The position numbers and the translations under genes were made by a program. Of a stretch of 64,000 bases of DNA, positions 21,259 through 29,220 are shown piece after piece. This DNA comes from an uncultured Spirochaetia bacterium (GTDB taxonomy: Bacteria > Spirochaetota > UBA4802 > UBA5368). The notes beneath the pieces were generated by a model. It did not search any database. It saw only the letters and a program-made list of their open reading frames with translations, and was not told where the DNA came from. The stretch is taken from NCBI GenBank assembly GCA_937877025.1, contig CALEGE010000029.1, positions 13,696 through 77,695 of the forward strand, read 5' to 3'. The first letter of the stretch is position 1, and the number at the start of each line of letters is the position of its first letter.

Positions 21259-22527
21259 ATGGAATATGCCACAGCGCTTCGTCCGTATACCGTACGGCGG
21301 CTCGAAGAGATAAAAAAAGCGGACATCCTGGTGGGCGTGCCATGTTATAATAACGAAAATACTGTGGGGCATGTCATTGAGATGGTATCCGCCGGCCTCG
21401 CTAAATATTACCGTGACGCGCGGTCGGTTATTTTTGTTTCCGACGGGGGATCGACAGACGATACCAGAGACATTGCGCTCGCGACGGAATTGAAGCCGTG
21501 GCAGGAAAAGCTTGTGCAGATATACAGGGGCATATCCGGAAAGGGGAGCGCCTTCAGGGCGATCTTCGAGGCCGGGGCGATTCTCGATGTCCGGGCGTGC
21601 ATGGTCGTCGATTCTGACCTGCGAAGCATATCGCCCGACTGGGTCAATCTGCTGCTTGCTCCCGTAATGCACAACGACTATGAATTTGTAGCGCCGGTAT
21701 ACACGCGCCACAAGTACGACGGCACCATTACGAACAATATCGTATACAATCTCACTCGCTCAGTGTACGGGAAACGAATTCGGCAGCCTATTGGCGGCGA
21801 TTTTACCTTTTCGAAAGGTCTGGCCAAATTCTATCTTGAAAAGCCTGTATGGAGCACAGATATCGCGAAATTCGGCATTGACGTATGGATGACCATCAAT
21901 GCCATCGCGCGGAACGTGAATATCTGCCAGGCGAACCTTGGCGTGAAAATCCACGACGCGAAAGATCCCGCGCAGTCGCTGGGGCCGATGTTCGTCCAGG
22001 TCGTCGGTACGCTTTTCAACCTGATGGAGCACTACGAGCTGTTCTGGAAAAATGTCACCGGCTCACGGGATGTGCCCCTCTTCGGCGACGAGGTGCGCAA
22101 GGAGCCGGAGCCGGTGAAGGTCGATATGCGGAAACTTGTGCATGAATACACGACAGGCTTTTCGCAGTTCAGGCCGCTCTACAGGGGGATTTTTTCGCCC
22201 GAGGTGTATGCCGGCCTTGAAGCCGCGTCTTTGCGTGGCGCGGCGAATTTCGATATTCCAATTAATATCTGGGTAAAAACCCTCTTTGAGCTGGCCGCTA
22301 CGTATCATCACTGGAAAATCAACCGGGTGCGTCTTATCAACCTCATGGTGCCGTTGTATTATGGTCGCGTGGCCTCGTTTGTCAACACCACGCTCGACAT
22401 GGACTCCTTCCAGGCGGAATCTGTCGTTCAAGAGCAGGCGGAAGCCTTTGAGCGGGAGAAGGAGTACCTCATTGCCAGATGGGATGAAGGCAGGCCCGAG
22501 CCGGAATTATTTGGACAGGTTTTTTAA
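21259..22527 (+). CDS. GT-A fold (family-2-like) glycosyltransferase with C-terminal extension
   Basis: ILVGVPCYNNENTVG... and a DxD-like VVDSDL. The 422-aa length implies an extra C-terminal domain. Confidence 0.55.
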   Translation: MEYATALRPYTVRRLEEIKKADILVGVPCYNNENTVGHVIEMVSAGLAKYYRDARSVIFVSDGGSTDDTRDIALATELKPWQEKLVQIYRGISGKGSAFRAIFEAGAILDVRACMVVDSDLRSISPDWVNLLLAPVMHNDYEFVAPVYTRHKYDGTITNNIVYNLTRSVYGKRIRQPIGGDFTFSKGLAKFYLEKPVWSTDIAKFGIDVWMTINAIARNVNICQANLGVKIHDAKDPAQSLGPMFVQVVGTLFNLMEHYELFWKNVTGSRDVPLFGDEVRKEPEPVKVDMRKLVHEYTTGFSQFRPLYRGIFSPEVYAGLEAASLRGAANFDIPINIWVKTLFELAATYHHWKINRVRLINLMVPLYYGRVASFVNTTLDMDSFQAESVVQEQAEAFEREKEYLIARWDEGRPEPELFGQVF

Positions 22528-22573: not shown

Positions 22574-22620
22574 GGATGCCGGCGTACGGCGGGGGGAGTG
22601 TCCGGCATGCTTTTTTTTAA
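22574..22620 (+). terminator. Putative intrinsic terminator after the glycosyltransferase gene
   Basis: ATGCCGG ... CCGGCAT stem followed by GCTTTTTTTT. Lies upstream of an AT-rich promoter region. Confidence 0.4.
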
Positions 22621-22751
22621 GAAAATGATTTTGTAATGCCATTATGACGTAAATTACAATGCGTATAAAATATTTTATATGATTTAAATTTTATAATATG
22701 GTTTGACGTTGCGATGATGACGATATATGCGAAACACCATTACTATTTTAC

Positions 22752-24845
22752 ATGGAACCGGTAGGAATTATGGAAATTGCGGAATGTAATGCCGATATCG
22801 TGACCAACAGGTTCGTGTGCATATCCGAAAGGGTGAAAAACAGAATCGATTTTTCCGCGGCGATGGATATTACGCCGTTCGTTTTCGAGGATATCGCAAA
22901 GGAAATTGAGAACATTACACACGGGTTGTCCGGCGCGGCCTTTGCGCTTGTATTCGCAAACCGGAGTGAATGGGACGATATTGAAAAAACGCTGTCGGAT
23001 TTACGGAATGAGCGGCTGTATTCCACATGCGTGCTTGTCGGCAGCGAGGATGATATCGTTGATGAGGCGGATCTTGGCGGCATACTGCACTATGCCGCAT
23101 CGCGGATAAACGCGCGTGAATATGACTTTCTCGTGAAAAAGGGATTTGCGGTTCTCGATGAACAGCACCGTGCCGCGCGTGATCGTGCGGAGTATAACGC
23201 CCTGCTTCTTGACATGAAACAAGACCAGGAAGACCTCATCAACATTGGAAGGTCGCTGTCCATAGAAAAGGACTCTGACAAGCTGCTGCGCCTGATACTG
23301 CTGCTTGGAAAAAAAATCACCGGAGCCGACGCGGGGAGTATTTATATCGTTGAAGAAAAGGATGACGGAGCGAAGCATTTACGCTTTAAATACTCGCACA
23401 CGTTTTCCAAAAACCTCCCGTATGAAGAATTCGTGCTGCCAATTGACGCCAATTCCATCGCCGGATATGTGGCGATGACAGGAAAGGTGCTTAATATTCC
23501 GGATGTATACGAACTTTCGGATGGCGATCCAGTTTCGTTCAATTCTACGTTCGACAGCGCGCATAATTACCGCTCGAGATCCATGCTTGTTGTGCCCATG
23601 AAAAACAATGTCGACGAGATAATCGGCGTTATTCAGCTCATCAACAGCAAGGAGGACACCAGCGAGAATTCGCGGATCAGGGGCAACGAGGCCTTTGAAA
23701 TCACTCTTGCAACGACTGAGGACTTCAATGTGAAGGTTGTGCCGTTTGCCGCGCGGTACGAATCGCTTCTCGAGGCGGTTGCCGGCCAGGCGGCAATTGC
23801 GTTAGAAAACAACAGGATGATGAAGCAGATTCAGTTCCAGTTCGAGGAATTTGTCAGAGCGTCGGTTTCCGCGATAGAGTCCCGAGACCCGGCGACATCC
23901 GGGCACTCCTTCCGCGTTGCCGAGATATGCAAACAGCTTGCGTACGCGGTCAACAGCGAAACAGAGGGTGAGTACGAAACTGTCAATTTCAGCGAGACGG
24001 CGATAAAGGAGCTTGAATACGCGGCGCTGTTGCACGATTTTGGAAAGGTGTATATCGATCTTGCAGTGTTTCAAAAGGCGAAAAAGCTTTTCCCGAAAGA
24101 ACTCGACAACCTGATGCTGAAGATGGATTATCTGTACCGGTGCACCGAACTTGAGTATAATGCGAAAGAAATTGCCCTGCTGAAAAAATCACGAAACGGG
24201 GCGAACGTCCCGGCGCTGACCGGGGGTCTCGAAGCGGAACGGAAGCGTCTGCTCGATGCAATCATGGACATTAAAAAGGAACTGCGTGCGCTGAACGAGC
24301 CCACGGCGACCGATGCCGATCCCCTGAAGGTGCTCGATGGCGTGATTTCGAAGCTGCCTGCGGTGTCGTGCCTGCTGCCGGATGGTAACGCGATTGATGT
24401 GATTTCAGAAAGCGAACGCCGCAATCTCGAAATACGCCGCGGCAGCCTCAATTCGCAGGAGCGCAAAATCATTGAGAGCCATGTGGTGCACACATACAAT
24501 TTTGTCAGCAGAATACCGTGGCCGCCGGAGTTTCGCAATATCCCGGAGATTGCCGCGAAACACCACGAAAAGCTCGATGGCTCGGGATATCCCGGAAGAT
24601 TACACGGCGAGAACGATATACCCATCCAGGCGAGGATGATGGCGATTGCCGATATCTTCGACGCGCTCTCCGCATCGGACAGGCCGTACAAAAAATCGCT
24701 GCCGATAGAAAAAACTCTCGCGATTTTACAGGATGAGGCAAAACAGCGCAAGCTTGACCAGAAACTTGTTGATCTTTTTATCAGGTACAGAATATATGAG
24801 AAAACCGATAAGAATTCACTTAAAGGAGAAAACACGGCGACATGA
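22752..24845 (+). CDS. GAF-domain / HD-GYP c-di-GMP phosphodiesterase-family protein with large insertion in the HD domain
   Basis: HD motif (LLHDFGKV) and HHEKLDGSGYP (HD-GYP signature) are separated by ~185 aa instead of ~55. A GAF-like segment lies upstream. Stop overlaps the next start (ATGA). Confidence 0.75.
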   Translation: MEPVGIMEIAECNADIVTNRFVCISERVKNRIDFSAAMDITPFVFEDIAKEIENITHGLSGAAFALVFANRSEWDDIEKTLSDLRNERLYSTCVLVGSEDDIVDEADLGGILHYAASRINAREYDFLVKKGFAVLDEQHRAARDRAEYNALLLDMKQDQEDLINIGRSLSIEKDSDKLLRLILLLGKKITGADAGSIYIVEEKDDGAKHLRFKYSHTFSKNLPYEEFVLPIDANSIAGYVAMTGKVLNIPDVYELSDGDPVSFNSTFDSAHNYRSRSMLVVPMKNNVDEIIGVIQLINSKEDTSENSRIRGNEAFEITLATTEDFNVKVVPFAARYESLLEAVAGQAAIALENNRMMKQIQFQFEEFVRASVSAIESRDPATSGHSFRVAEICKQLAYAVNSETEGEYETVNFSETAIKELEYAALLHDFGKVYIDLAVFQKAKKLFPKELDNLMLKMDYLYRCTELEYNAKEIALLKKSRNGANVPALTGGLEAERKRLLDAIMDIKKELRALNEPTATDADPLKVLDGVISKLPAVSCLLPDGNAIDVISESERRNLEIRRGSLNSQERKIIESHVVHTYNFVSRIPWPPEFRNIPEIAAKHHEKLDGSGYPGRLHGENDIPIQARMMAIADIFDALSASDRPYKKSLPIEKTLAILQDEAKQRKLDQKLVDLFIRYRIYEKTDKNSLKGENTAT

Positions 24846-25780
24846 AACGGCACTTCATCCAGGGACTCGCGCTGCTATGCGTGCTGTTCGTTTCGCTTTC
24901 CGCTGTGTCTGTGCGTGCCGATGAAAAGGTCACGTTAGTGTACACCAACTCTCTCAATGGGGCACTCGATTACTGCCGCTGTAAAAGCGATCCTAAAGGC
25001 GGACTGGTGAAGCGGGCCACCGAGATTCGCGAAATACAAAAGGCGTATCCGAATGTCGTTCTCTTCGAATCGGGAGATTTTGCGTCGTATGACCCGGACC
25101 CCCTGTTATACGGGTATCTGGTACAAGCGTACCGCCATATCAAATACGACGCGATACTCTTCGGCGATCAGGAATTTTCCGCGGGAATCCCCAATTTTCT
25201 GCGTTACAAAAACGAATTGCCGTTCGTCTGCGACAACATTGTTATAAAGAATGAAAACCGCTGGGAGCAGTTTGCCACGCGAACGATAACGCTGAAACGC
25301 GGCGGTCTTGTTATCGGCGTTATCGGAACAATCGCGCCTTCCGCGTTCAGATATTACAGCCGCGGTATTACCGGCTCGGTGCGGGTTTCCGGACAGGTGG
25401 ATGAGATTCGCAAGGATGTGAAGGCGTTGCGAAACGATGGGGCGGGGCTCGTGGTGCTTCTTTCCCATTCCGGCTACGGGGCCGACTGCGAGCTTGAAAA
25501 AGATATCCCGGGTGTTGATATCATCATTGGCGGCCATTCGCAGACGTTGTTGAAAAATCCCGTGAAGGGCGTCAACGCCATTATCGTCCAGGCGGGCGCC
25601 GACGGTGCGCACATCGGCATACTTGAATGTGTCGTTTCAAAGGACGGCATTCGCTCGTATAAAAATTCGTTCCGCCGGCCGGACGAGAACCGGCCTGCCG
25701 ACGATGCGTATATACGCTCGCTGATTACGCGGTATCAGGAAGAGACGGAAAAGGAATTTAAAAAAATGAGGTTCAAGTGA
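24842..25780 (+). CDS. Secreted 5'-nucleotidase/calcineurin-like metallophosphoesterase-fold protein with degenerate metal-ligand motifs
   Basis: Signal peptide. The GD motif (ESGDFASYDP) and GGHSQT are present. Motif I reads YTNSLNGAL instead of HTNDxHG, and GNHE is replaced by GDQE. Confidence 0.55.
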   Translation: MKRHFIQGLALLCVLFVSLSAVSVRADEKVTLVYTNSLNGALDYCRCKSDPKGGLVKRATEIREIQKAYPNVVLFESGDFASYDPDPLLYGYLVQAYRHIKYDAILFGDQEFSAGIPNFLRYKNELPFVCDNIVIKNENRWEQFATRTITLKRGGLVIGVIGTIAPSAFRYYSRGITGSVRVSGQVDEIRKDVKALRNDGAGLVVLLSHSGYGADCELEKDIPGVDIIIGGHSQTLLKNPVKGVNAIIVQAGADGAHIGILECVVSKDGIRSYKNSFRRPDENRPADDAYIRSLITRYQEETEKEFKKMRFK

Positions 25781-26280
25781 TGATTGACGCGTCAGAAGCG
25801 CGCACCCTTCTGCGGGAGATGTTTTTCATCGTGATTGCCGCCGCCTTTCTGGGCTATTGCATTGCCATGTTTCATCCGAAAGGGTACGTGCTTATAGGGC
25901 GGGGCGCGTTGAATGATACGCGGATTGTGACGATCTCCGTCGATGAGGCGCGGCCGAAGCGTAATTGCTCCGCCCTCTTTATCGACGCCCGCGGACGTTT
26001 GGACTACAACGTGTCGCATATTGCCGGCGCGGTCAGCATACCCGCGTCGCCGGAATCGGTTACACTGCATGCGATCAGGGAGCACTTTAAAAAAATCGGG
26101 GACGCGGGCGAGCTGGTCGTCTACTGCGGCGGCAGCTCATGCGGGATTTCCACACAGGTCGCGAAGCGCCTGATTTCGATGGGATATCCCCGGCATATCT
26201 ATGTGCTGGCGGAGGGGTTTGCGGGATGGCGGGAGAAACGCCTGCCGCTGGAAGCCGGAGAGGAGCATGATGGGGAGTAA
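25780..26280 (+). CDS. Membrane-anchored rhodanese-domain sulfurtransferase
   Basis: N-terminal TM. Rhodanese fold with an active-site loop Cys (VVYCGGSSCGIS). Start overlaps the preceding stop (GTGATG). Confidence 0.7.
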   Translation: MIDASEARTLLREMFFIVIAAAFLGYCIAMFHPKGYVLIGRGALNDTRIVTISVDEARPKRNCSALFIDARGRLDYNVSHIAGAVSIPASPESVTLHAIREHFKKIGDAGELVVYCGGSSCGISTQVAKRLISMGYPRHIYVLAEGFAGWREKRLPLEAGEEHDGE

Positions 26281-26283
26281 GCC

Positions 26284-26784
26284 ATGGAATCGGTAATCAA
26301 TTTTTTTCGTGACACCGCATACGGCAATCGCTTCAGCGCGTGTGTGCGTGTTTTACTCGGAGCGCTTCTTGCGTATGGGGGATTCTTCAAACTGCTCGAT
26401 ATCGAGTCGTTCGGGGGTGTGATACGAATGTACGATATGCTTCCGGAGGCGTTTGCGCCGCACGCCGCGATTGTGCTGCCTCCCCTGGAGGTGCTGCTGG
26501 GTATCATGCTTGTGGTCGGATATAAAACCAGGGCGGCGAGCCTGCTGTCGATGATACTGATGGGCGTCTTCGCCGTGGCGATTGCCGTGAATGCGGCGCG
26601 CGGCGCTTCGTTCGATTGCGGCTGTCTTGAGCTTGGAAGGTTCGGGATCAGCGAAAATATCAGCATGACGCTTGCCGCCAGGAATATAGTGCTGATACTC
26701 GCGTTCCTGCTTGTGTTTAACCTGAGAAAAAATGTGTTGTCGATCGACGCGCGCATCGAACGCGGAACGTTGCGCGATATCTGA
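26284..26784 (+). CDS. MauE/DoxX-family membrane protein
   Basis: Four predicted TM helices and a DCGC motif characteristic of MauE-like proteins. 3-nt gap after the rhodanese gene. Confidence 0.6.
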   Translation: MESVINFFRDTAYGNRFSACVRVLLGALLAYGGFFKLLDIESFGGVIRMYDMLPEAFAPHAAIVLPPLEVLLGIMLVVGYKTRAASLLSMILMGVFAVAIAVNAARGASFDCGCLELGRFGISENISMTLAARNIVLILAFLLVFNLRKNVLSIDARIERGTLRDI

Positions 26785-26793
26785 GAAGGCACT

Positions 26794-28395
26794 ATGATTG
26801 CACAGGTGCTTGGCGGCATAGGCATTTTCCTGATCGGCATGATTCTGATGACCGACGGTCTTAAATCGCTGGGCGGAGACGCCCTGCGGAGGGCTCTCAC
26901 GCGGTTTACTGGGGGGACGGTGCAATCCATCATTTCTGGATTTGCTGTCACCTCTCTGGTGCAGGCGTCGAGCGCCACCATCCTCGCAACGATCGGCTTT
27001 GTATCCGCGGGGCTCATAACGTTTACGCAGGCCATCGCGATCGTATTCGGCGCGAATCTGGGGACCACCACCATCGGCTGGCTGGTGTCGCTGCTTGGTT
27101 TTAAGTTTCACGTCGAGCTTGTCGCGATGCCGATGGCGGGTATCGGCGCGTTAATGATGCTGCTTGCGCGCGGCAGAAAGGCCTCTGCGGGAATGGTCAT
27201 TGCCGGATTTGGCCTCCTGTTCATCGGCATTGCCACGCTGCAATCGGGGATGAAACATCTTACCGACAACGTCGATATCACCACATTTCCCGATGCGGGA
27301 TGGTACGGCAGGGTTGTGCTTATCGCCGTCGGAATTTTAATGACAATCCTGATGCAGTCGTCGACAGCGGCGCTCGTAACCACGCTCGCGGCGCTGTATA
27401 CCGGCAATCTTACCCTGGCGCAGGCCGCCGCGCTTGTGATAGGACAGAGTATCGGTAAAACGTCGACAGCGGTTATTGCGACAATCGGCGCGTCGGTCCA
27501 GGCCAGGCGCGCCGCTCTGGTGCATATAATTTTCAATTGCGTCACGGGATTCGTTGTCTATTTTCTGTTTGCGCCCTTTCTCAATACGACCACATGGCTC
27601 TGCTCGCTTGCGGGCATCCATGATCCTTCTGTGGCGCTGTCGGGATTTTTTACGCTCTATAATCTTTTCGGCATCGTTTTGCTTTCCCCGTTCATCTCGC
27701 ATATCGGGGCTCTGATAGAGCGCTATATTCCCGAGCGCGGCTCGGCGCTGACGCGTAATCTTGACGATTCTGTGACGAAGGTGGCGCCTGTCGCGGTCGA
27801 AACGGCGCGCCGTACGGTGATTGGTATCGCGGCGCTTGTGATGGGATCGCTTCGCAGACTTGTGCTTGCCGAGGTTACCTACAGGGATATTGCCGATGAT
27901 ATTGAAGGAGCGCAGACCGCCTTAGCCGAAACGGGAAGATTTCTCGGGAAAGTCAGTTCGGAATCCGCGTCGGCGGAGGTGCACCACCAGCACATATCGG
28001 TGCTGCACGCAATCGACCATCTTGAGCGGCTGACCGATGCGTGCAAAGAGATAGAGGAGGTGCGCACCGTAGCGCATATCGAAGAATTACGCGCCATTGC
28101 CCTTGAAAAGCTTGACCAGCTTGATGATGTAGTGAAATGGCTGCAGGGCCGTTCTTTTGAACCGCCGGTACGCATCGTGGAGGCCATGTCACGATCGATT
28201 GCCGGCATACGGCAGACGCAGCGCGTCGAGGTGCTCGAGCTCACGGCGCGGGGCGGAATTGACCCGAACCTCGCTATGGGAAAACTTGAAGCGATGCGCT
28301 GGCTTGACCGGCTGGTGTATCATATCTGGCGTGCGGTCTACCACCTCGGCGACAGGCTGCAAGAGCAGGTGCAACTGCCCCGGGACAGGCGATAA
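26794..28395 (+). CDS. Na+/phosphate-cotransporter-family (NptA-like) membrane protein with C-terminal PhoU-like domain
   Basis: N-terminal MIAQVLGGIGIFLIGMILMTDGLK... typical of Na/Pi-cotransporter II-related proteins. C-terminal helical PhoU-like region. Confidence 0.8.
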   Translation: MIAQVLGGIGIFLIGMILMTDGLKSLGGDALRRALTRFTGGTVQSIISGFAVTSLVQASSATILATIGFVSAGLITFTQAIAIVFGANLGTTTIGWLVSLLGFKFHVELVAMPMAGIGALMMLLARGRKASAGMVIAGFGLLFIGIATLQSGMKHLTDNVDITTFPDAGWYGRVVLIAVGILMTILMQSSTAALVTTLAALYTGNLTLAQAAALVIGQSIGKTSTAVIATIGASVQARRAALVHIIFNCVTGFVVYFLFAPFLNTTTWLCSLAGIHDPSVALSGFFTLYNLFGIVLLSPFISHIGALIERYIPERGSALTRNLDDSVTKVAPVAVETARRTVIGIAALVMGSLRRLVLAEVTYRDIADDIEGAQTALAETGRFLGKVSSESASAEVHHQHISVLHAIDHLERLTDACKEIEEVRTVAHIEELRAIALEKLDQLDDVVKWLQGRSFEPPVRIVEAMSRSIAGIRQTQRVEVLELTARGGIDPNLAMGKLEAMRWLDRLVYHIWRAVYHLGDRLQEQVQLPRDRR

Positions 28396-28398
28396 CGG

Positions 28399-29220
28399 TT
28401 ATGCCAGCCGGCGCTGTGCGGCGCTCTCGGTCATCCCGTCCACTTCTTCTTGAAGCAGTACTATCCGCGCGCGAAGGTCGTTCATAAGGTCATCGAGCCT
28501 CTCGACGGAGTATCCGGCAGTGGGCATTTCCTTTCCTATTTTTACAATCACATTGCTTGGATAGATTAACGGCGTGTCGGGTTTGAGTATGTTGTACGAT
28601 CCTTTTATGTATATGGGTACGATCGGTACGCCCGTTTGCACGCAGAGATGAAAGAGCCCTTTCTTGAATTGCTGCAGTTCACCGGTTCGGCTGCGGGTTC
28701 CTTCAGGGAATATCATTATGCGGCGCCCCTGTTTTACTTTTTCCGCCGCCTCGTTCATGCTGTTGATCGCCTTTTCCCTGTTGCCGCGGTCCACCGATAT
28801 GTACCCGTTCAGCTTCATATGCCATCCCATGAATGGAATCTTAAAAAGCACGGCCTTGGCGACCCATCCGAACTTGACAGGTATGACTGAATTCAATATG
28901 AAAATATCGAAATGGCTGGAATGGTTTGATGCGAAAATTTGCACTCTGCCGGGATCGATATTTCCGATGCCTTCTGTGCGGACCCTGATTCGGCAGACAA
29001 AGAGAATGCTTTTTGACCATGCGCGCATGCAGAAATGAGCCATCCTTCCTCCGGGGCTGTAGATGATCGATGTGATCGATACCGTTCCCCAGAAAACTGT
29101 GTCGAGAAGAATGAAAATCCAGCATGCAAGGGAATTGAGTATCGCGAGAATATCCTTCATTATCAAGTTCCTCCTGGGGCCGAAAGTGCGGTCTCCGGGC
29201 GCGCACCGGCCGGTGCTCAA
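28399..29220 (-). CDS. Lysophospholipid acyltransferase (PlsC-like)
   Basis: HxxxxD motif (NHSSHFDIF) and FPEGTRS motif. N-terminal TM. Confidence 0.75.
   Translation of the reverse strand: MSTGRCAPGDRTFGPRRNLIMKDILAILNSLACWIFILLDTVFWGTVSITSIIYSPGGRMAHFCMRAWSKSILFVCRIRVRTEGIGNIDPGRVQIFASNHSSHFDIFILNSVIPVKFGWVAKAVLFKIPFMGWHMKLNGYISVDRGNREKAINSMNEAAEKVKQGRRIMIFPEGTRSRTGELQQFKKGLFHLCVQTGVPIVPIYIKGSYNILKPDTPLIYPSNVIVKIGKEMPTAGYSVERLDDLMNDLRARIVLLQEEVDGMTESAAQRRLA

Follow-up and report, generated by a model that had tools for sequence, protein, structure and literature searches.

The locus described here raises the question of whether five adjacent genes, for a GAF/HD-GYP protein (g1), an exported protein of 5'-nucleotidase fold (g2), a rhodanese (g3), a MauE/DoxX membrane protein (g4) and a Na/Pi-cotransporter-family protein (g5), form one functional system. 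According to the list of open reading frames (ORFs), the five genes are tightly packed on the + strand in region 22752-28395 of the window, by which we mean the whole stretch of 64,000 nucleotides from an uncultured Spirochaetia bacterium that was analysed. The initial annotation had proposed a periplasmic sulfur-transfer or redox module, placed under a cyclic-di-GMP phosphodiesterase and joined to an NptA-like transporter. The reading that we favour, with moderate confidence, is that g2, g3 and g4 constitute a thiol-disulfide (electron) relay outside the cytoplasm.

The domain assignment of all five proteins with Pfam and NCBIfam confirmed the five calls of the initial annotation, and the overlaps and gaps that it had given for the five same-strand ORFs can all be read from the sequence. 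The g1/g2 junction is ATGA at 24842-24845. At the g2/g3 junction, GTGATG at 25777-25782, the stop codon TGA (25778-25780) runs into the ATG at 25780, with GAGG 9 nt before this ATG. A 3-nt gap (26281-26283), with GGGGAG before it, separates g3 from g4, and a 9-nt gap (26785-26793) that opens with GAAGG separates g4 from g5. These junctions support a co-directional and translationally coupled gene set.

The extent of the functional unit was examined by synteny. A profile of the g2 family was scanned over one genome per GTDB species, which gave 78 loci; these were compared by tblastn and iterated hidden Markov models, and the neighbouring ORFs were clustered. The order g1-g2-g3-g4, on one strand, is found in about 20 Spirochaetota species-level genomes (Leptospirales-affiliated metagenome-assembled genomes, MAGs), with identities to the window proteins of 50-66% for g1, 41-56% for g2, 31-41% for g3 and 31-52% for g4; the g2-g3-g4 triad is found in about 25. 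The tight packing is no local accident, for the g1/g2, g2/g3 and g3/g4 junctions overlap or nearly abut in more than 20 related genomes as well. Five loci hold g2-g3-g4 without g1, two of them being cut by a contig end. At L010 (6469-9767), L015 and L043, the place of the HD-GYP gene is taken by genes for a 339-aa rhodanese-domain protein and a 720-aa polytopic membrane SpoIIE/PP2C phosphatase, which is a different signalling output at the g1 position; at L008 and L013 the genes upstream of g2-g3-g4 are unrelated. Downstream of g4, the relatives carry unrelated genes (panB, an ARMT1-like phosphatase, SBP, cysS, DegT). Because of this conservation of gene order and the absence of g5, the conserved functional unit is g2-g3-g4, usually together with g1.

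The fifth gene, g5 (26794-28395, + strand, 533 aa), matches Pfam Na_Pi_cotrans with 148 bits, NF037997 with 155.8 bits (cut-off 50) and TIGR00704 with 170.5 bits, under the cut-off of 210.1; no PhoU domain was detected in its C-terminal 200 aa. Not one of the 78 g2-family loci has a g5 homologue. In related Spirochaetota the g5 orthologues (60-68% identity) stand alone, divergent from a futalosine-pathway menaquinone cluster, and in GCA_018263175.1 the g5 orthologue (L084) lies on another contig than the cassette (L009). The menaquinone cluster at the orthologue loci L082-L086 encodes UbiD, UbiA, a UbiX-like flavoprotein, two radical-SAM CofH_C proteins and VitK2_biosynth. Only loci of the same species (L079-L081, with g2 99% identical) showed the five-gene layout. 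Judging from this distribution, g5 is probably co-transcribed here and is best regarded as a recent lineage-specific passenger in the transcription unit, outside the conserved cassette. The five-gene set as a functional system was rejected on synteny, and the proposed linkage of rhodanese, MauE and Na/Pi transporter had to be given up with it.

We then consider the three proteins of the conserved triad. The product of g2 (24842-25780, + strand) has 312 aa and an N-terminal signal peptide up to about VRA/DE (aa 26/27). Since the N-termini across the family are ordinary Sec-type signal peptides, g2 is read as an exported soluble protein. In Pfam it gave only a weak Metallophos match (18.6 bits, cut-off 21.5). 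The best NCBIfam match is the UshA-like (seleno)protein model NF041198 (108.3 bits, below its cut-off of 275), followed by SoxB, TIGR04486 (75.1 bits, below its cut-off of 550; relatives of g2 reach up to 132 bits with this model), and then by many models of 5'-nucleotidases and cyclic phosphodiesterases. An AlphaFold2 model of g2 was built from 21 family sequences, with a predicted local distance difference test score of 92.3. Foldseek retrieved with it the N-terminal domains of CD73, the Thermus 5'-nucleotidase and UshA, at E values of about 1e-19 to 1e-22, template modelling scores of 0.72-0.79 normalised to g2, and identities of 19-23%. The predicted structure is that of an N-terminal calcineurin-like metallophosphoesterase domain. 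The C-terminal nucleotide-binding domain (PF02872) is absent, as the protein ends at residue 312 after the inter-domain linker helix.

The metal ligands were mapped by HMMER alignment to solved 5'-nucleotidases; the residue numbering of UshA is established (Knofel & Strater). The canonical HTNDxH motif reads YTNSLN in g2 (YTNSLNG at 24941-24961), with Asp replaced by Ser37 and His by Asn39, and the canonical GNHEFD reads GDQEFS (GDQEF at 25163-25177), with Asn replaced by Asp109, the catalytic His by Gln110 and the dyad Asp by Ser113. Asp79 of the GD motif is kept, as are His209, in LSHSG for canonical (L)GHSG, and His232 and Gln234, in GGHSQT for canonical GGHSxT; a Gln at the last position of this motif is also a metal ligand in E. 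coli UshA. Neither the complete dimetal ligand set nor the catalytic His-Asp dyad is found in g2: site 1 and the dyad are gone, and the Asp/Asp/His/His set that is left could hold one metal. An alignment of 114 family members shows no more variation at the replaced positions than at the retained ones (Y34, S37, N39, G78-D79, G108-D109-Q110, H209 and G231-H232-x-Q234). Considering that the replaced residues are themselves invariant, the site has been remodelled under selection and has not decayed. An active nucleotidase was rejected as the identity of g2, on the altered ligands and the missing C-terminal domain.

These results agree with the initial annotation in that YTNSLNG, GD, GDQE and GGHSQ lie at the places that it gave and that g2, having lost ligands and dyad, is not a normal phosphoesterase. 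Its statement that the metal ligands are replaced is correct for S37, N39, D109 and Q110 and incorrect for D79, H209, H232 and Q234, which are kept. It had also missed the two most informative features of g2, the absent C-terminal domain and an invariant Cys45-x-Cys47 loop.

This loop, Cys45-Arg-Cys47 (24974-24982, + strand), is the predicted redox centre of g2. All 114 aligned family members have Cys45 and Cys47 (DYCRCKSDPKGG). A profile search of 1.84 billion representative proteins gave 1,524 clusters (50% identity) at E ≤ 1e-30, and CxC was seen in every N-terminus inspected among 139 of the best 150 relatives, at least 20 of these 139 being fused to a four-CxxCH (four-haem) domain and others to redoxins. 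The C45-R-C47 of g2 aligns column for column with the C-G-C of a Marinimicrobia protein (L042), and also with 'PCGC' members; the L042 protein passes the cut-off of NF041198 (279.5 bits) and consists of the CxC domain, then four CxxCH haem motifs, then LysM. In a Deltaproteobacteria MAG (VGSS01000038), the g2-family gene L070:1186-2481 has an in-frame TGA (nt 1312-1314) at the second Cys position. Its loop reads ...YTNSINGEIDPCPT[U]DPKMRFGG... (DPCPT[U]), a CxxU form, where U is selenocysteine (Sec), and its own start and signal peptide are intact upstream. This gene, in which a hairpin of -15.8 kcal/mol follows the TGA, probably encodes a CxxU-type selenoprotein that has escaped annotation. 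'COG0737 UshA-like' selenoproteins with a CxU motif have been catalogued, with no function assigned (PMC2398784, PMC9312934, PMC13188914), the 'COG0737 UshA-like, CxU' entry being found in Zhang & Gladyshev 2008 (PMC2398784); the CxU entries in PMC2398784 and PMC13188914 correspond to the NF041198 'PCGU' family.

Additionally, the g2 domain is found in Elusimicrobia, Desantisbacteria, Firestonebacteria, Dependentiae, Latescibacterota, Marinimicrobia, Calditrichota and the PVC group, in members that share the S-x-N, CxC, GDQ[ED], SH and GGHSQ motifs. No rhodanese or MauE was found near the g2 domain in about 45 non-cassette loci from at least eight phyla. A ResA/TlpA-like redoxin is the partner in 37 of them, either as an N-terminal fusion (18 loci) or as a separate gene within 2.5 kb (19 loci). 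Since Sec occurs at the loop and the family has three independent kinds of electron-transfer partner, these data indicate a catalytic redox function for the loop.

The third gene, g3 (25780-26280, + strand), encodes 166 aa from the ATG at 25780, or 167 aa from the GTG at 25777. It matches Pfam Rhodanese (PF00581) with 57.2 bits, and the F-x-D-x-R and H-I-x-G-A motifs and YC116 are conserved. Its top NCBIfam match is TsoB, a rhodanese/DsbD fusion-like selenoprotein (NF045694), with 48.8 bits against a cut-off of 805. The active-site loop is Cys116-GGSS-Cys121 (26125-26142), where a Cys at +5 replaces the usual Arg/Ser; of 25 sequences, 96% have C116 and 88% have C121. The motif catalogued for TsoB, UxxxxU, has a spacing equal to that of C116-x4-C121 (PMC13188914). 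An N-terminal hydrophobic anchor spans aa 14-31, and because conserved Lys and Arg are enriched on its N-terminal side, the rhodanese domain is predicted to be periplasmic. The initial annotation had rightly called it a membrane rhodanese.

The product of g4 (26284-26784, + strand, 166 aa) matches Pfam MauE (PF07291) with 92.3 bits (cut-off 27) and DoxX with 33.7 bits, and gives a weak NCBIfam match to HvfX (E = 0.004). It has four hydrophobic segments, with K/R-rich loops after the second and fourth transmembrane segments (TM2 and TM4). In the TM3-TM4 loop lies Cys112-Gly-Cys114 (26617-26625), the core of the DCGC motif noted in the initial annotation; this pair is present in 22 of 22 members, and K36 and E69 are conserved in at least 90%. 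A recent preprint reports that MauE of Caldithrix and Desulfatibacillum, from two phyla, replaces DsbB in E. coli, that the CXC in the periplasmic TM3-TM4 loop is required, and that a conserved Lys in TM1 and Glu in TM2 line the predicted quinone site; its authors expect a partner of thioredoxin fold, for instance DsbA or MauD (bioRxiv 10.64898/2026.03.05.709764, March 2026). By its sequence, g4 has the features of such a MauE/DsbB-like protein, except that Leu stands for the conserved Phe after the CXC. A word-indexed homologue search with g4 returned 4 proteins only, too few to gauge the spread of rhodanese-MauE pairs.

The first gene, g1 (22752-24845, + strand), encodes 697 aa from its first possible start; since the N-termini of the homologues are poorly conserved, the start is uncertain and may be at 22752, 22770 or later. 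The protein matches HD_5 (HD-GYP, PF13487) with 114.8 bits and GAF with 41.8 bits in Pfam. The motifs LLHDFGK (aa 426-432, with HD at 429-430), HHEKLDGSGYP (aa 604-614) and IADIFDAL (aa 632-639) are intact, and the protein is cytoplasmic, with no membrane segment. About 20 of the roughly 25 related cassettes encode it upstream of g2, which bears out the earlier view that an HD-GYP protein is co-encoded with the redox genes. From these features, g1 is most likely a predicted cyclic-di-nucleotide phosphodiesterase that acts as the usual, translationally coupled regulatory companion of the cassette, through which the module would be tied to cyclic-di-nucleotide signalling.

The hypothesis of a relay is supported by the conserved order of the genes, by the conserved, closely spaced cysteine pairs in g2, g3 and g4, and by the redoxin and tetrahaem partners that the g2 domain has elsewhere. 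The three proteins are predicted to meet in the periplasm, from the signal peptide of g2, the K/R side of the g3 anchor and the position of the g4 CGC loop opposite the K/R loops. In the relay that we propose, g4 would act in a DsbB-like manner, with electrons exchanged between its periplasmic Cys-Gly-Cys and the quinone pool; that MauE is an analogue of DsbB and has its active site in the CXC is taken from the literature (bioRxiv 10.64898/2026.03.05.709764). Its immediate partner would be the membrane-anchored periplasmic rhodanese g3, through its CX4C, in place of a thioredoxin-fold protein of the DsbA/MauD type. The g2 protein would be the dedicated client or the terminal catalyst, with its CxC loop beside a remodelled site that possibly binds one metal. 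Electrons would then pass from the CxC of g2 to the CX4C of the rhodanese, to the CGC of MauE and to the quinone, which is probably menaquinone because relatives encode the futalosine pathway.

Several observations weigh against this relay. The rhodanese at L007:10861-11364 lacks both loop cysteines (VVYGDGERPDID), in an otherwise complete g1-g4 cassette where the CxC of g2 and the CGC of g4 are intact, and two further cassettes lack C121. Therefore, the rhodanese cysteines are not required in every cassette, and g2 may be a direct target of MauE; in some lineages the rhodanese may be an adaptor instead of a redox carrier. Six Spirochaetota loci (L019, L020, L022-L025) keep g2 in its usual position, next to panB-folK, with no g3 or g4 nearby, and one of them (L025) keeps g1. 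In five cassettes g1 is replaced by the SpoIIE phosphatase or absent and, as a cytoplasmic protein with no membrane segment, it has no evident physical signal route to the relay. Finally, ResA/TlpA redoxins are usually reductive and the action shown for MauE is oxidative, so that the direction of flow may differ by lineage or have been read wrongly.

A further-reaching reading of the same data, which we put forward tentatively, is that the CxC/CxU UshA-like proteins, g2 among them, are a large unrecognised class of periplasmic thiol/selenol oxidoreductases on a metallophosphoesterase fold. They would work with three interchangeable partners, namely MauE with a rhodanese, a ResA/TlpA-like redoxin or a tetrahaem cytochrome c, and the rhodanese would be the DsbA-like partner of MauE in the present cassette. 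We know of no redox enzyme with the calcineurin-like metallophosphoesterase fold.

Among the alternatives, the one that survives best, although we regard it as unlikely, is a module for sulfur compounds. The rhodanese would accept sulfane sulfur from donors such as thiosulfate or polysulfide, g2 would be a SoxB-derived carrier or hydrolase of a Cys-bound adduct on its CxC, and MauE/DoxX would pass electrons to quinone like the DoxDA thiosulfate:quinone oxidoreductase. The rhodanese is a bona fide one with its catalytic Cys in place, and g4 matches DoxX, DoxD-type proteins being subunits of thiosulfate:quinone oxidoreductase (PMC6158253); moreover, according to the passage of PMC8638967 that cites the M. 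tuberculosis work, DoxX pairs there with the sulfurtransferase SseA. SoxB is the second NCBIfam match of g2 and the cytochrome c fusions in relatives recall SoxXA, but the SoxB score of g2 is far under the cut-off (75 against 550, and 132 at most in relatives), the catalytic His/Asp and two site-1 ligands are replaced, and the C-terminal domain of SoxB is missing. No soxYZ or soxXA genes were found in the window at 19-30.6 kb or in L079, the neighbour clusters that recur at the 78 loci include none, and none lies in or beside the cassette at any locus examined. The partner in most phyla is a thioredoxin-fold redoxin and not a sulfurtransferase, and the cysteine-free rhodanese of L007 also speaks against sulfur transfer. 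Of the initial proposal of a sulfur-transfer or redox module, it is thus thiol-disulfide or electron transfer that we favour, and a SoxB-like role in the sulfur cycle less so, in view of the redoxin and tetrahaem fusions, the variants with Sec and the DsbB-like role of MauE.

A module for soft metals or metalloids appears quite improbable. Here the CxC of g2, the CGC of g4 and the CX4C of g3 would serve in the periplasm to bind Cu, Hg, As, Se or Te species or to reduce them, g2 being an ArsC-like oxyanion reductase on a phosphatase fold and the Na/Pi-type transporter moving the oxyanion. Beside the thiols, the residues D79, D109, H209, H232 and Q234 might bind a metal or an oxyanion, and Sec/Cys variants are common in metalloid-detoxifying enzymes (PMC13188914). 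The g5 family does transport phosphate or oxyanions, but g5 is not conserved with the cassette, and no ars, mer, cop or ter genes were found among the neighbours examined. The rhodanese loop lacks the CX5R of arsenate reductases of the Acr2/Cdc25 type. HvfX, to which g4 has its weak match, is a Cu-binding DoxX-family protein, and a neighbour in Elusimicrobia combines an OS_HP2/DUF1573 CxC domain with an ArsG-like membrane domain (E = 3e-8); both matches are weak and far under their cut-offs.

This Elusimicrobia gene (L046:6226-7740), which follows a redoxin-CxC fusion, encodes a DUF1573/OS_HP2 Ig-like domain with its own CxC (SSCVC), a CxxC segment and a polytopic membrane domain with NPC and FCTGQ motifs, and an equivalent gene is found in L039, L045, L049, L050, L074 and L075. 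From its motifs, the product may be a membrane electron conduit. A CcdA/DsbD-like identity, suspected from the NPC motif, found no Pfam support even at E ≤ 1 and is at most tentative.

Least probable of all is a transcript shared by genes with no shared function, in which g2 would be an inert pseudoenzyme or structural periplasmic protein and MauE and the rhodanese would serve general envelope protein oxidation: MauE has been proposed as a generalist disulfide-forming enzyme, the second most common DsbB-type enzyme in bacteria (bioRxiv 10.64898/2026.03.05.709764), g5 shows that unrelated genes can enter this transcription unit and g2 stands alone in some genomes, but genes with as little as 31-41% identity still follow the g2-g3-g4 order with overlapping stop and start codons, neither the CxC nor the substituted active-site residues vary in about 1,500 clusters (50% identity), selenocysteine at the loop is unexpected in an inert protein, and repeated independent fusions to redoxin and cytochrome c domains argue for a redox role.

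If g2, g3 and g4 do form a thiol-disulfide relay, the cassette offers MauE a candidate partner of non-thioredoxin fold, the CX4C rhodanese, and a candidate dedicated client, g2. It also provides a genetic handle on the 'UshA-like' selenoprotein family, listed since 2008 without function, through loci in Spirochaetota and at least eight other phyla. Should the wider class of oxidoreductases hold true, the family would be a phosphoesterase scaffold converted to thiol chemistry, in parallel to ArsC, which arose from low-molecular-weight phosphatases. The linkage to HD-GYP suggests that the redox state of the envelope could be tied to cyclic-di-GMP signalling in these spirochaetes.

The flanks of the operon were described as well. 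A glycosyltransferase gene of family GT2 (21259-22527) lies directly upstream; its top NCBIfam match is glucosyl-3-phosphoglycerate synthase, with a score far under the cut-off, and a GT2 glycosyltransferase gene is also directly upstream of g1 in about nine related loci, at 71-76% identity. Between it and g1, sequence and fold show a terminator-like hairpin (AUGCCGG...CCGGCAU) followed by U8, at about 22574-22616 on the + strand, and then an AT-rich leader (22617-22751, + strand) with sigma-70-like hexamer pairs at 22631-22660 and 22644-22671, which are consensus matches only and not evidence of function. The upstream terminator and AT-rich promoter of the initial annotation are both there as patterns, but at the level of consensus only: with a z-score of -0.54 the hairpin is no more stable than shuffled sequences, and terminator-like matches in the region are at chance (9 found, 8.8 expected). 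Scans for promoters and terminators within the operon likewise gave chance-level numbers, which do not discriminate for or against a single transcript. The best + strand sigma-70-like match of the region, TTGAGA-17-TACAAT at 24472-24500 (10 of 12 positions), is inside g1, about 340 nt upstream of g2; it is a possible internal promoter for g2-g5, as a consensus match only. On the other side, the gene set is bounded, as had been reported, by a convergent gene, which encodes a PlsC-type acyltransferase (28399-29220, - strand) and whose stop is 3 nt from that of g5.

Some recurrent neighbours were seen at other loci. Type III CRISPR genes (Cas10/Csm1 and three RAMP proteins) lie directly upstream of the lone g2 at L019 (2754-8369), L022 and L023. 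Outside the cassette, the usual neighbour of the g2 family (L033-L075, L059-L072) encodes a lipoprotein with a CsgG/LpoB/TolB_N/FlgO-like domain, which has a GCxxxxCA motif in 35 of 41 members and is sometimes or often followed by an LPP20 lipoprotein. Neither lipoprotein is present in the window, and both were rejected as parts of this system.

Neither this cassette nor a pairing of rhodanese with MauE was found described in the literature searched on these two proteins and on TsoB, in keeping with the remark of the initial annotation that the combination is not recognised as a described system. The cassette is most likely akin to the DsbB/DsbA or MauE/MauD relays, with a non-thioredoxin partner and a pseudo-nucleotidase client as its new elements. 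In common with these relays, g4 has four helices, a CGC in the TM3-TM4 periplasmic loop, the Lys and Glu, and a periplasmic partner encoded adjacent to it; here, however, this partner has the rhodanese fold and a CX4C in place of the thioredoxin fold, the candidate dedicated client g2 is part of the operon, and there are no mau genes.

In the same way, TsoB resembles g3 as a rhodanese with two redox-active residues five positions apart that is joined to a membrane thiol-redox domain. It differs in being a single fused selenoprotein with a DsbD-like domain, whereas the present system has separate genes, cysteines and a membrane partner of the MauE type. The passage of PMC8638967 that cites Nambi 2015 describes the membrane oxidoreductase complex DoxX-SseA-SodA of M. 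tuberculosis, a precedent for the pairing of a DoxX-type protein with a rhodanese-family sulfurtransferase; SseA has two domains, though, SodA has no counterpart here, and the complex as described there includes no pseudo-nucleotidase. For a periplasmic rhodanese that drives disulfide formation the precedent is PspE, which, according to the citation of Chng 2012 in PMC5403849, restores disulfide formation in dsbA-deficient E. coli; as reported there, it has one cysteine, works through DsbC and has no pseudo-nucleotidase partner.

For g2, the comparison with UshA, CD73 and SoxB shows a common N-terminal calcineurin-like fold with the GD, (L)SH(S)G and GGH(S)Q motifs. In contrast to these enzymes, g2 has two site-1 ligands, the type of one site-2 ligand and the His/Asp dyad replaced, no C-terminal domain, an extra CxC loop and no Sox partner genes. 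The closest likeness is with the families NF041198 ('PCGU') and NF049981 ('family 2'), with which g2 shares the 5'-nucleotidase N-domain, the S-x-N, GDQE, SHSG and GGHSQT motifs and the Cys-x-Cys/Sec loop. Compared with NF041198, g2 is the Cys form, scores under the cut-off and consists of the 312-aa domain alone, with neither the tetrahaem cytochrome c nor the LysM of L042; its genomic partners are a rhodanese and MauE instead of a redoxin.

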